64,000 nucleotides of DNA from Escherichia phage phi456, in the sequence record OR339795; one strand, 5' to 3'. The stretch's first letter is position 1; each line of letters starts with the position of its first letter. Under the pieces are notes generated by a model. The model was not told where the DNA came from. It worked only from the letters and a program-made list of their open reading frames with translations, and searched no databases. The translations under genes and the position numbers were made by a program. Shown piece by piece: positions 5,156 through 10,298 of the stretch.

Positions 5156-6268
5156 TTAGAATTGGTAGGTCATACCAACAGCAACGATGTTGTCGGTTGC
5201 AACCTCAGATCTTTTGGTAAATTCACTTTCATCAATCAGGTTGATCTTGTAGTCAACGAAAGCGGACATATTTTTGTTGAAGTAATAAGTCGCACCCAAG
5301 TCGATGTATTCAACCAGATCCTGGCTGCCGAACGCACCAATATTTTCACCGCGAGAGTGCAGATAAGCGATGGACGGACGCAGGCCGAAATCAAACTGGT
5401 ATTGAGCAACAGCTTCAAAGTTTTTCGCCTTGTTCGCGATAAAGTCATCACCGAAGACAGTCATATTCTGAGTTTCAGAATAAGTTGCAGCCAGGTAAAT
5501 GTTATTTGCGTCATATTTCAGGCCAGTAGCCCATACTTCAGCAGTTTTACCAGAAGCATTCAGAGGATCCTTTTTAGCATAGGATACCTGCCCATCAGTA
5601 CGATCAGATTTTGCATAGGTTGCACCAACGCCAAATCCTTCATAATCGTAAGTAGCAGACAGACCAAAGCCATCACCATTAGATTCAACTACGTCACGGC
5701 CTTTCCAGTTGTTCACTTTTGCAGCACTATCATTTTTACCTTGATACTGCAAAGCAAAGTTCAGACCATCAACCAGGCCGAAGAAATCATTGTTACGGTA
5801 GGTGGCTACGCCAGTAGCACGCTGGGTCATAAATACATCGGTCTGAGTCCAGGTATCTCCACCAAACTCAGGCAGCACGTCAGTCCAAGCGCCAATATCA
5901 TAAGCTACACCATAGTTGCGACCATAGTCGATTGAACCATAATCAGCAAAACGGAGGCCAGCAAATGCAAGACGAGTTTTATCTTTATCAGAGCCCTCAG
6001 ATTCAGTACGGTTACCTTTAAATTCGTACTCCCACTGACCAAAACCGGTTAACTGGTCATTAATCTGAGTTTCACCTTTGAATCCCAGACGAGCATAAGT
6101 CTTATCTCCGTCATCACTAGCTGAAGAAGAGAAGTAATGTTCTGCGTTAACTTTGCCGTACAGATCCAGTTTATTACCGTCTTTGTTGTAGATTTCAGCT
6201 GCTTGCGCAGACATTGCCATCAGGACAGATGCTGCAACCGCAGAGAGTGCCACTGTGATTTTTTTCAT
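5156..6268 (-). CDS. outer membrane general porin (OmpC/OmpF/PhoE family)
   Basis: 370 aa; signal peptide ending AQA, then [29 protein letters not shown] motifs and C-terminal ...YQF barrel terminus. Confidence 0.9.
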
Positions 6269-7009
6269 TTTTTTTGCCCTTTAGATTGAACTTTTCAGTA
6301 GAAAAGAAGTCACTGCGGACAAATGTTTATCTTTTTTGGATTCGTGTTTCAAGTTTTGCAAATAAAAATCAAGGTATTTTTGTGATCAAAATCACAAATA
6401 ATAGCCTTGAAAACCCAATGGACTATTAGAAAAAACTCAATTCACAGAATAAAAATTGACAAAATAGATCAAAAAACAATCAAAAATAAGCACAAAAGAC
6501 AAACAATTAAATTATCACAAAAATAATAACTGTCAAAAATAGATAGCCTGTTAATTAACAGGGCTTTAATGGATGTAGACTTGAAATCTACTTAAAAATT
6601 AGAATCAAATTAATTACTGCCGATTGGGTATTAAATTGAATCTATATTGTGAGAGTTAAAGACGATGTGTTTTAGTTATAAATGTTATTCCCTAAAATGG
6701 AGCGGTCTCATCGAATCCTGATTAATAACGAGCTAAGCTAATTCATTTTAGTATGTGTATATCTTTACCCTCTGAATATGCAATAAAGAAGAGATATTAA
6801 ACAATATGTAGCTTCAGGATTGACTCTGGAAGAATTAAAAGATCGACTAAAGTGTTCAATATGTGGTGAGCGAAACGCAAAAATTAATTTTTTTTGATCT
6901 AACATATTAGGTAACGGCTTGCTTCCATAACCTAAAGCAAGCCACTACGCGTTTACTTTAAGTACACAATTAACATATCAGAACAGATTATTTTTGCACA
7001 ATCAGGGAG

Positions 7010-7321
7010 TTAATATACGATCTGGTCTACATGATCACCAAAATCATCATCGTCGTCGTCATCATCGCCACCATCTACTGCTGGCCAATCAACAAACCAG
7101 CCAGCGTAAAGATGCAGCGTTCGGAGAACATCACTTGCGGGAGCATCAAGGGTGTTAACGAATCCCATATAGCTATTGGGATTTGCCCCAGCTATGGCTT
7201 CAGCGATCATGTCCTCGGTAATGTCACCGGAGATAATGCTTAAACGCCCGGAAACTTCTTCATTATCATCAAATTCGATAATGGCATCTCCGCCTAATGG
7301 CGCTGCGATTTTAATCTGCAT
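7010..7321 (-). CDS. small highly acidic protein with an 8-Asp tract (distal gene of the dar operon)
   Basis: 103 aa, about 24 D/E against about 3 K/R, run DDDDDDDD; overlaps the ddrB stop. Confidence 0.5.
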   Translation of the reverse strand: MQIKIAAPLGGDAIIEFDDNEEVSGRLSIISGDITEDMIAEAIAGANPNSYMGFVNTLDAPASDVLRTLHLYAGWFVDWPAVDGGDDDDDDDDFGDHVDQIVY

Positions 7322-10298
7322 TATTTAGCTCCTTTGCCACACCTAATAACAGTTCCAGCAATCCGTCACCATTCATCAGTGATGCGGCAGCGGCCTCTTT
7401 GTCATGATACAACTGAAGAGCCATAGAGAATACTTCCGTTGCTGACGTTTTGGAAATAGTCGGTGATTTCTGCCGAATTTTCCCGGTGTTACTTACTGAG
7501 GCTGGCGGGTATACCTTCGCCATATAAATATTACTCAATCGAGATCTGAAGCACCATTCAGGCTTGCCACGCCCACCGATATTAACGAAAGATGGCTTAT
7601 CCCCTTCAACATTGGCCTTCAGGAATGACCGGGCTTTCTCTAACAAACCAGGGTTACTGTACTCAAGATGATGACCCAGCTCGTGCCACAGTGCACTTGC
7701 ATTTTCATCGTTCAAATTGACAGCAACAACACCATTAAGATTTGCATATGCCCTTCCCTGGTGGTGAACCACCTTTGATAAGGTCGAAATTTTACCGCCG
7801 GTCAGGCGATAAATATCAGCAAGTTCCTTGCGCAGGTCTATCCCACCATTCTGTCCAGCGCGGGCTTCTTCCACTTCTTCCGTGATAAAAGAGTCGGCCC
7901 ACTCAAGAGCTTTTTCTTCAGATACGGATGAGTTTGCGATCGCACTGTTCATGGCAGATAACACTTTCTCGTGGACCGAACCCATTCTTCGCTGATTCAT
8001 TTGCCAGCGTGTCTGCGGGTTATATGAGAATCGCTTAAGTAGTTGGTCAAGCTGCTCAAGTTCTTCTTCACTGACATACCTTTTAGCCTCACCAATAATG
8101 CCAGGGAGAATATTGCCGTTAGGATTAAACGCTCGCGAAAGGAAGAGTTTCAGCGCCCCCATGCCCTCCGATGCTTCAATATCACCAATAACCCGGTTAA
8201 CAATGGCCGCACTCTTCGGATTAGCATCCGCCAACGCTCTGGCTACAATTTGCAGGGACGATACGACCTCACGCTGCATATCAGTCCTGATCTCATCAAT
8301 AAACTCTGGCGTTATGCCGTGCTCTTTAAGGATATCCCTGCCTTCCGCCGTTACCCCATCGATATCACCGACATGTTTATTAACCCGACTTTGCAATGCC
8401 TTAAATGCCTTCAGAATTCCACGGGAATCATCCGCTTTACTAACGGCCTTCCTGAATGCTGGCAAGAAGTCTGAGTTAACCTCATTTTGTTGATCGGCCC
8501 ACTGAATGGAGGCTTCTTTCATCTCGTCCAGAGTCAGATCACCCAACGCGGTATGGTCTGTGAATATGAGCGACAACCTCTGAACCATTTCTGCCAATGG
8601 TGATGCCGAATGCGCCGCGCTAAGGAATGCTTTCACCCTGGTTGGGCGAATGGAAAACCAGTCAATAGCTGGTGGCATATCTCCGTTTTTTATCGCCTGC
8701 GCTATCTCGTCAAAGCCATCGCGCCCAAGGGAAGATGCGTGATTTAACAAGCCGCGAAGTAACGAATTGCTGATACCGAATAATCGGCACCATTTTTTCA
8801 CGTCGGCAACAGGCATTCGAACAAAATGCGCAAGCACTTGTACAAGCTGTTCATCCTGGGGATCTGTGCGGGAAAGCAGCCTGATCAGATGAATAATGTC
8901 TTTGATGCCGGATGCCCGATGTAATAGCAAACTGGTATACGGAGCAACACCGTTGTAACTACCGCCGGAAACGGACTCGAAAAGACCGCCGGATATCCCT
9001 TGCATGCCTTCGTTTTCCAGTTCCTGAGACACCTGGCGAAGGATATCCTGTAACGACACATCGCCGCCGCCAAACATATCCCCCAGCGCCTGGCCCTGGT
9101 GCTGTAACTCATCATTGATACGTTGAGCCATCAACTTAAAGGCGGTGGCCATACGCTTCGCGCTACGGTTATTCGCGACGATGAACAACGCGAGAGCTTT
9201 CACTTCCGGGGCTGTTTCGCTGAACATATCCCCCTGAGCAATAACATCGGTAATATGTTGGCCTGACTCCTTCGATTGCCTTACCAGGTCTACCGCATCT
9301 TTCAATGCCGCCAGCGCCTTTTTATCGAGACTATCCGCTGTCTCAATGCCATCAACAATAGTTGTCACAGCCTGCTTGTGCGCTTCACCTGATAAAGCCT
9401 GCATCTGGACAAAATCATTGGCTGCCGCATTAAGCGCCGTCAGAACATTACGCATATCTGGATCAGGTTCTTCTGCAACCATCCTTACCAGGCGCGCATC
9501 CTTATATGCCTTGGCAAAGATCGCGTTTTGTATACGGTCTACAAGTTGCCGTGTTGGTCGCCCATCTTCAGTTACAAGGCCAGCCGCCTGTGTGGCACCA
9601 ACTTGCGTCATAAATCCGCGAATAAACGCGTTATTACTGCGGCTAAGCAGATCTCCGCTTTCTGACGGGTTAAAAAGCGCCATCATCGCCGGTGTTATGC
9701 TGTCGGCATCAACAAAAGCCTTTTCACTGGCTGCCATTTCCTGGAGATCAGAAATATTTGAGTCCTTGGCAAACTGAACACGGTCAACCTTCGTTAACCG
9801 GCGGCGCACCAGTACCGGAGCCGTCATTGATTCAACCTTTTCAGGCCGTATGCCGAATTCGGTCGCATGTTCAATCAGGTACTCCCGATACCGATCCGCA
9901 TTACCGTCCTGATAGGCTTTAATGATCCCCATGGTCCGCCCATTACCTGACTCAACGGCATTGTCCTCACCAATTATCGGCGCACCATGGCTGGATAAAC
10001 CGGAATCAGTAAGCTGAGCAGGCCGCAAATCTTTGGATATCTGGTTAACCTGAAGAAGGCTGGATGCGCGGGTCCGGTCGCGCGGCTGAAGTTCCTGGGG
10101 ATAGTCAGGATTAATTTTCCCATCCAGAGTATTGGATACCAAAAGAGCTGAGGCATCGACGATATCAAACGCTGTTTTTACCTCGTCTCCCTTCGCTGTC
10201 ACCACATACGAAACCCGCCCATAATCGGGCAGGTTCTTAAGCAGCTCGATCAGCGTTTCTATGCTGGTGGCCATTACCACCTGATCGCTTAAGCTCAT
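7311..10298 (-). CDS. ddrB: DdrB-like antirestriction-associated protein
   Basis: 995-aa ORF in the hdf-darA-ddrA-ddrB order; contains WHELGHHLE (HExxH) near the C-terminal quarter. Confidence 0.5.
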   Translation of the reverse strand: MSLSDQVVMATSIETLIELLKNLPDYGRVSYVVTAKGDEVKTAFDIVDASALLVSNTLDGKINPDYPQELQPRDRTRASSLLQVNQISKDLRPAQLTDSGLSSHGAPIIGEDNAVESGNGRTMGIIKAYQDGNADRYREYLIEHATEFGIRPEKVESMTAPVLVRRRLTKVDRVQFAKDSNISDLQEMAASEKAFVDADSITPAMMALFNPSESGDLLSRSNNAFIRGFMTQVGATQAAGLVTEDGRPTRQLVDRIQNAIFAKAYKDARLVRMVAEEPDPDMRNVLTALNAAANDFVQMQALSGEAHKQAVTTIVDGIETADSLDKKALAALKDAVDLVRQSKESGQHITDVIAQGDMFSETAPEVKALALFIVANNRSAKRMATAFKLMAQRINDELQHQGQALGDMFGGGDVSLQDILRQVSQELENEGMQGISGGLFESVSGGSYNGVAPYTSLLLHRASGIKDIIHLIRLLSRTDPQDEQLVQVLAHFVRMPVADVKKWCRLFGISNSLLRGLLNHASSLGRDGFDEIAQAIKNGDMPPAIDWFSIRPTRVKAFLSAAHSASPLAEMVQRLSLIFTDHTALGDLTLDEMKEASIQWADQQNEVNSDFLPAFRKAVSKADDSRGILKAFKALQSRVNKHVGDIDGVTAEGRDILKEHGITPEFIDEIRTDMQREVVSSLQIVARALADANPKSAAIVNRVIGDIEASEGMGALKLFLSRAFNPNGNILPGIIGEAKRYVSEEELEQLDQLLKRFSYNPQTRWQMNQRRMGSVHEKVLSAMNSAIANSSVSEEKALEWADSFITEEVEEARAGQNGGIDLRKELADIYRLTGGKISTLSKVVHHQGRAYANLNGVVAVNLNDENASALWHELGHHLEYSNPGLLEKARSFLKANVEGDKPSFVNIGGRGKPEWCFRSRLSNIYMAKVYPPASVSNTGKIRQKSPTISKTSATEVFSMALQLYHDKEAAAASLMNGDGLLELLLGVAKELNNAD

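Follow-up and report, generated by a model that had tools for sequence, protein, structure and literature searches.

The 64,000-nucleotide (nt) stretch of Escherichia phage phi456 DNA analysed here (sequence record OR339795; hereafter the window) carries the gene order lydA-lydB-hdf-darA-ddrA-ddrB-hxr. The subject of this analysis is hxr and its relationship to ddrB, the gene that it directly follows. The hxr coding sequence, the last gene of the darA operon, occupies positions 7010..7321 on the minus strand and encodes 103 amino acids (aa) plus the stop codon (MQIKIAAPLGGDAII...GGDDDDDDDDFGDHVDQIVY). An initial annotation, made from the DNA alone, had described this open reading frame (ORF) as a small protein with a net charge of roughly -20 and a run of eight aspartates (Asp8). 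Both its coordinates and its description proved accurate: the product has 103 aa and a net charge of -21, and the Asp8 run is present. The gene itself is already known and annotated, its counterparts being P1_gp021 in P1 and JL22_gp018 in Escherichia phage JL22 (Punavirus). JL22 is 100% identical to the window over positions 6500-8000, and also over hxr itself, while P1 and P7 are 96-97% identical to the same region. The P1 gene is also present, as ORFVIII, in GenBank entry AJ000741 ('Bacteriophage P1 darA operon'), where it is followed by an annotated terminator.

A search of the phage protein families matched PHROG 2292 to Hxr from end to end (E 3.9e-60), aligning Hxr residues 1-103 with positions 1-105 of a profile 105 positions long. 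PHROG 2292 is Hxr's own family and carries no assigned function. Because of this full-length match, and because homologs of the same length occur in many P1-like phage-plasmids, hxr is, by its conservation as a protein, a real gene, and a chance ORF was rejected. Three ORFs on the opposite strand (6994-7158, 7031-7243 and 7176-7328, all plus strand) were also rejected, being short and lying inside a coding sequence that is conserved as protein. The GenBank note on P1 hxr reads 'possible repressor; homolog of Xre', and gene tables in the literature still list the gene under a repressor label. In the literature searched, we found no functional study of hxr and no hxr knockout.

The arrangement at the 3' end of the operon points to translational coupling of the last two genes. 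The ddrB stop and the hxr start overlap by 11 nt (7311..7321, minus strand), and a Shine-Dalgarno sequence, AAGGAG (7329..7334, minus strand), precedes the hxr ATG by 7 nt and so falls within the coding sequence of ddrB. This AAGGAG-N7-ATG layout is kept at nearly all related loci. No sigma-70-like promoter was found on the minus strand within 1.3 kb upstream of hxr. About 60 nt downstream of the hxr stop is a perfect 15-bp stem-loop (6911..6948, minus strand) that coincides with the terminator annotated in AJ000741. The predicted RNA fold of the surrounding segment (6880-7012, minus strand) has an energy of -36.8 kcal/mol, with a z score of -5.2 relative to shuffled sequences. A simple terminator scan missed the hairpin because it lacks a canonical U-tract; the hairpin may work bidirectionally.

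Published RNA-seq of P1vir infection is consistent with this arrangement. The log2 fold change (log2FC) of hxr rose from 4.98 at 10 min to 10.22 at 30 min, and over the same interval that of ddrB went from 4.65 to 11.09, that of ddrA from 4.86 to 10.86 and that of darA from 4.72 to 11.54 (PMC8201110, Table S1). The early genes cre, ant1 and parA had already reached a log2FC of 9.5-10.4 at 10 min in the same experiment (PMC8201110). Thus, hxr is a late gene that shares the kinetics of ddrB, ddrA and darA. The co-transcription with the dar operon genes proposed in the initial annotation is borne out by the overlap with ddrB, the lack of a promoter-like site of its own, the hairpin and annotated terminator that follow, and the matching late expression. 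By both position and expression, hxr belongs to the darA late operon of the Dar system.

To place hxr in a wider context, we gathered and parsed approximately 185 loci; the counts below apply to the unique locus types among them. Every long DdrB (906-1016 aa) was followed by an acidic ORF of 96-121 aa with a net charge of -6 to -23. The overlap of the acidic ORF with the end of ddrB ranged over 4-20 nt and was mostly 11 nt; nearly all of these ORFs had AAGGAG upstream. Three diverged elements have an hxr homolog directly after ddrB with an overlap of 11-14 nt, followed by a RelE/MqsA, Arc-like or SSB gene. The gene after hxr varies by lineage and may be a porin, IS1/isaB, RelE/MqsA, Arc or SSB gene. 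In three lineages (L027/L111, L029/L168/L175 and L028), the small ORF behind the long DdrB was too diverged for sequence search. Comparison with hhalign backed remote homology for two of these three lineages, with a probability of 80% and an E of 1.4e-5 over 76 co-linear columns in one comparison (A6 vs A7), and a probability of 69% and an E of 4.4e-5 in another (A6 vs A8). L111 keeps the motif LLRAVEAAGGKVEWPEAW, and L028 matches over that motif only.

No Hxr-like ORF was found after ddrB in the short-DdrB lineages examined. The short DdrB of Vibrio, for example, is a 614-aa protein comprising ParB plus InPase and is followed by a convergent parB. (In another group of P1-like loci, L117, L123, L127-L142 and L160, a DdrB of ~450 aa is followed, after a gap of 64-88 nt, by a conserved 560-aa protein beginning MATKDKNKGFLSALKK..., and no hxr-like gene is present.) The confinement of hxr to loci with a long, peptidase-bearing DdrB is the new observation made here. 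As in a pair of dedicated partners, adjacency is strict and translational coupling is kept across diverged lineages, and the presence of one gene tracks a specific domain of the other: hxr is found wherever DdrB has a variable middle region and an HExxH zincin, and is absent where DdrB stops at ~450 aa or has InPase in their place. This strict and exclusive linkage ties hxr to the Dar machinery.

In the window, ddrB (7311..10298, minus strand) encodes 995 aa and can be divided into a ParB-like N-terminal module (aa 1-440), a hypervariable middle (441-800) and a zincin (800-995). The Pfam family ddrB-ParB matches the protein with an E of 1.7e-39. Relative to P1, the three modules differ greatly in conservation among lineages, with 56-90% identity over aa 1-440, 10-30% over 441-800 and 30-60% over 800-995. 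(The boundary at ~440 is also where the naturally short DdrBs end, and it coincides with a recombination breakpoint between P1 and lineage L007, at which identity falls from 90% to 34%.) The C-terminal 235 aa (7311..8018, minus strand) hold the zincin metallopeptidase domain, the proposed partner of Hxr, with the motif HExxHHxE at aa 872-879 and a basic insert of 66 aa with a charge of +10. In 13 of the 13 long lineages examined there was a single HExxH, 100-130 aa from the DdrB C-terminus, and the extended HExxHHxE was invariant. The DdrB metallopeptidase has been proposed to perform the known cleavage that precedes packaging (Iyer et al., PMC5512222), which would supply a step in need of regulation.

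Comparison of P1 with L007 illustrates how the two genes have evolved. DdrB aa 1-450 are 90% identical between them, while the C-terminal half of DdrB is 34% identical and Hxr 41%; therefore, Hxr and the C-terminal half of DdrB travel and diverge together. Over 13 lineages, compared in pairs, the identity of Hxr correlated with that of the DdrB C-terminal half with a Spearman rho of 0.73, and with that of the N-terminal half with a rho of 0.61. A relationship was also seen between the charges of the two proteins. Lineages with a strongly acidic Hxr tail have a 66-aa insert after HExxH with a charge of +8 to +14, and in the divergent lineages, with tails of -4 to -9, the charge of the insert is 0 to +4 (Spearman rho -0.59; p 0.006 without correction for phylogeny). 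This complementarity between insert and tail is suggestive only, given that the lineages are not independent.

The structure of Hxr was predicted with AlphaFold2 (AF2) from nine diverse homologs. The model shows a compact beta-beta-beta-alpha-loop-alpha-beta domain, aa 1-82, followed by a disordered tail. The predicted local distance difference test score was 76 overall, 82-90 over most of residues 1-82, ~70 for residues 21-30 and below 50 for residues 84-97. The predicted folded alpha/beta domain, taken as residues 1-80 (7082..7321, minus strand), has a net charge of -10 and includes the motifs PNSxxGxVN and VLR(S/T)L..GW.V.WP. Across the family, the domain spans 75-80 aa, with P8, S50, G53, N56, L66, R67, W75, W79 and P80 invariant. 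Since the invariant residues are hydrophobic or aromatic, together with a single arginine, they suggest an interface with a specific partner protein. Residues 81-103 (7013..7081, minus strand) form the acidic C-terminal tail, which is predicted to be disordered, has a net charge of -11 and ends in the hydrophobic/aromatic IVY (...DDDDDDDDFGDHVDQIVY). Family tails are 20-25 aa long with a net charge of -6 to -14, and their sequence is unconserved save for a hydrophobic end, (I/V)VN or IVY; the ends of other family tails read IVN, VEY, VCF or AIF.

The acidity of Hxr is extreme by the standards of the window. With 19 Asp and 5 Glu (24 acidic residues) against 3 Lys plus Arg, it has a net charge of -21 and an isoelectric point (pI) of ~4.05, and at -0.204 charges per residue it is the most acidic among the window's 99 ORFs that start with ATG and reach 80 aa or more, DdrA being next at -0.124. 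The Asp8 run (Hxr residues 86-93; 7043..7066, minus strand; codons GAT GAT GAC GAC GAC GAT GAT GAT) is the only run of five or more Asp among those 99 ORFs. The tract is polymorphic in length, with 6-10 acidic residues among otherwise near-identical hxr alleles of the P1 clade (loci L030-L185), consistent with slippage on a GAT/GAC triplet repeat. (A few alleles of this clade have a replaced tail, ...DEDDDDDEEVFSDETVNQLLY.) Two other products of the operon are also strongly acidic, DdrA with a net charge of -15 and a pI of 4.05, and DarA with a net charge of -33.

An exhaustive HMMER search over 1.84 billion representative sequences returned seven homologs, apart from fragments and two spurious matches. 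Six of the seven are proteins of 96-100 aa with 32-45% identity to Hxr. The other, P0014 (184 aa, 55% identity), is a tandem-duplicated Hxr with two complete domains, the first of which lacks most of the acidic tail. The two spurious matches, P0020 and P0025, are long, repetitive proteins that align only to query residues 23-49 through G/D/V-rich repeats, and they were rejected. A profile search added about a dozen more homologs, from hosts such as Klebsiella, Citrobacter, Cronobacter, Enterobacter and Rosenbergiella, and all those on long contigs were P1-like phage-plasmids of 80-96 kb. In such phage-plasmids, homologs of the same length are widespread at 38-47% identity. A scan of genome contigs yielded one hxr locus only; hence, the family is rare outside phage-plasmid collections. 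Searches of the Pfam, NCBIfam and PDB sequences (E<=10) and of PADLOC with Hxr gave no match.

We tentatively favour an interpretation of Hxr as a small late protein, not an enzyme, that partners specifically with the C-terminal half of DdrB, and there most probably with the zincin domain. This reading is grounded in the identity of the gene, its coupling to ddrB, its exclusive co-occurrence with long DdrB, the co-divergence of Hxr with the C-terminal half of DdrB, their late co-expression and the zincin fold found in DdrB; that the two proteins interact physically, where Hxr would bind and in which direction it would act are what we infer. Translational coupling would cause Hxr to be made in fixed proportion to DdrB. 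The conserved alpha/beta domain, with its PNSxxGxVN and VLRSLE..GW.V.WP motifs, might then dock on the DdrB peptidase module, while the flexible acidic tail with its hydrophobic/aromatic C-terminus could rest on the basic insert beside the HExxH site. Such docking would keep the DdrB peptidase or effector masked, or properly folded, in the producer cell, and in this way would control both the self-processing of DdrB (108 to ~76 kDa) and its orderly packaging into the prohead. Any "DNA-like" charge mimicry by Hxr would then have as its target the DdrB of the phage itself and not the restriction enzymes of the host, and Hxr would count as an accessory, seventh gene of the Dar system.

This picture has parallels in well-studied systems. 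Class I chaperones of type III secretion systems and immunity proteins such as the colicin Im proteins and barstar are small and acidic, are encoded adjacent to and coupled with their effectors, and co-evolve rapidly with the domain that they bind. Hxr is likewise small, acidic, adjacent to and translationally coupled with its neighbour, and co-diverging with the C-terminal half of DdrB; unlike these classes, it has no homology to them, and DdrB is not known to be toxic. A parallel for the tail is provided by E. coli SSB (...DDDIPF) and by T7 gp2.5 and gp4, whose disordered poly-acidic tails dock, by a hydrophobic/aromatic tip, on partner proteins at basic patches that bind DNA. The Hxr tail resembles these in being acidic and disordered with a hydrophobic/aromatic tip, and by analogy it would suit the basic insert beside the DdrB active site; however, Hxr has no OB fold or DNA-binding domain like that of SSB, and the inferred likeness is limited to the tail. 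Within P1 itself, Ulx 'aids DarB localization' and has been detected in virions (PMC9024508). Both Ulx and Hxr are small proteins encoded beside a very large Dar protein of the same phage, which suggests that the pairing of Hxr with DdrB may be analogous to that of Ulx with DarB, although ulx lies upstream of darB and Ulx is a protein detected in virions. No homology between Ulx and Hxr was seen, none having been looked for.

Several points weigh against a dedicated partner of DdrB. In a CRISPR interference screen, hxr was non-essential for plaque formation on K-12, with efficiencies of plating of 1.6 and 1.2 (PMC10695390), and published work on ddrB reports no requirement for hxr. The co-divergence may merely reflect linkage, because adjacent genes are co-inherited anyway, and the charge correlation rests effectively on two or three independent clades. 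In addition, while a masking, regulating or chaperoning role is favoured, inhibitor, chaperone and activator readings are indistinguishable from one another.

The alternative raised by the initial annotation was that Hxr is an acidic DNA mimic of the Ocr or ArdA type. In its fullest form, this idea would have Hxr enter the head alongside the Dar proteins and leave it with the DNA, whereupon its polyanionic surface and tail would fill the DNA-binding site of type I restriction enzymes, or of other defences of the host that bind DNA. Hxr does share with Ocr (T7 gp0.3; PF08684) and ArdA (PF07275) its small size, a pI of ~4, a mobile-element origin and an anti-restriction context. The strong acidity is conserved over the family, with net charges of -6 to -23, and the products of the late Dar operon, in which hxr lies, are packaged. 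Ocr and ArdA, however, are rigid, elongated dimers in which carboxylates trace the DNA backbone, and Hxr has no sequence or fold likeness to these or to any solved DNA mimic: a Pfam scan at E<=10 returned 0 families, and a phmmer search of the PDB at E<=10 returned 0 matches. Structure prediction had been put forward as a check for a DNA-like charge distribution, and what it gave instead was a compact alpha/beta domain with a disordered tail. The charge-based argument is likewise weak, because about half of the charge (-11 of -21) resides in the disordered tail, where the acidic run varies in length, because the folded domain varies in charge from one family member to another (-2 to -14), and because the strong acidity of DdrA and DarA makes charge alone non-discriminating. 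The invariant hydrophobic and aromatic residues, with their one arginine, also point to a specific interface between proteins. Ocr is the first gene expressed on entry of T7, and such a "first gene in" mode is ruled out for hxr by its late expression. Hxr does not appear in the list from liquid chromatography-tandem mass spectrometry of P1 virions; however, the proteins there were digested with trypsin and counted from two unique peptides upwards, and since Hxr gives a single tractable tryptic peptide (22 aa, the others being 36 and 41 aa), its absence there is weak evidence. A free-standing decoy would also leave the strict dependence on long DdrB unexplained, and the positive support for one consists of charge and location. 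We therefore consider a packaged decoy unlikely. Of the earlier proposal, the link to the Dar system stands, through membership of the darA operon and the linkage to long DdrB, while mimicry of the Ocr/ArdA type is not supported.

Hxr might also be a late cytoplasmic anti-defence or housekeeping factor that acts independently of DdrB, for example by neutralising a host or prophage nuclease or an abortive-infection sensor, and that sits after ddrB merely because this is the end of a convenient late operon. Late transcription fits such a role, as do the small size, the acidity and the absence of a known family, and dispensability on laboratory K-12 is typical of accessory counter-defence genes. 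Why hxr occurs only together with long DdrB and is absent when DdrB is short would then be unexplained, as would the conserved start/stop overlap, and this alternative appears improbable. The Xre-type transcriptional repressor of the GenBank label goes back to the original annotation note, which cites 28% identity over ~58 aa to B. subtilis Xre. No HTH_3, HTH_19, HTH_31 or other Pfam or NCBIfam family matched at E<=10, and neither did any PDB sequence. The predicted fold, beta-beta-beta-alpha-alpha-beta, is not a five-helix helix-turn-helix domain, and DNA binding is incompatible with so acidic a protein (net charge -21, three basic residues). Given that no helix-turn-helix was detected and that the model is a compact alpha/beta domain with a disordered tail, the label is untenable; the current annotation of hxr is very probably wrong, and there is scarcely any chance that Hxr is an Xre-type repressor.

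A bolder version of the partnership with DdrB would make Hxr an unrecognised seventh Dar component. The polyanionic, DNA-like tail would gate the DdrB zincin by occupying its basic, possibly DNA-binding patch, so that DdrB would be cleaved or activated only on meeting DNA in the head or in the infected cell; or else Hxr would be a co-injected decoy. In either case, both the fold of Hxr and its class, that of small acidic regulators travelling with the polyvalent effector proteins packaged in virions, would be new. We regard this as rather doubtful.

The Dar system of P1 is the textbook case of capsid-delivered anti-restriction, and its parts list now stands at six proteins. Through two decades of annotation, hxr has been labelled a 'putative repressor', and the label has been widely propagated in P1-like phage-plasmids, which include carriers of mcr-1 and of extended-spectrum beta-lactamase genes; it should be corrected. 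Hxr itself has no known fold, and its gene is an obligate companion, in these genomes, of the DdrB form that bears the peptidase. A partnership of Hxr with DdrB could offer a handle on how polyvalent virion proteins are restrained before injection, while if Hxr is only a chaperone, its significance would be modest and specialist.

Two neighbouring regions of the window deserve mention. Inside ddrB, on the opposite strand, is an ORF (9346-9777, plus strand) at the position of P1 'iddB'. The RNA-seq level of iddB was far below that of its neighbours, with a log2FC of -1.1 at 10 min and 4.9 at 30 min (PMC8201110), and for this reason iddB is probably not a real gene. On the other side of the hxr hairpin, a gene for an OmpD-like outer-membrane porin of 370 aa (5156-6268, minus strand) is located between hxr and ssb, where P1 has isaA/IS1/isaB. 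A cargo hotspot seems to start just beyond the hairpin, and RelE/MqsA, Arc-like or SSB genes are found there in other lineages.
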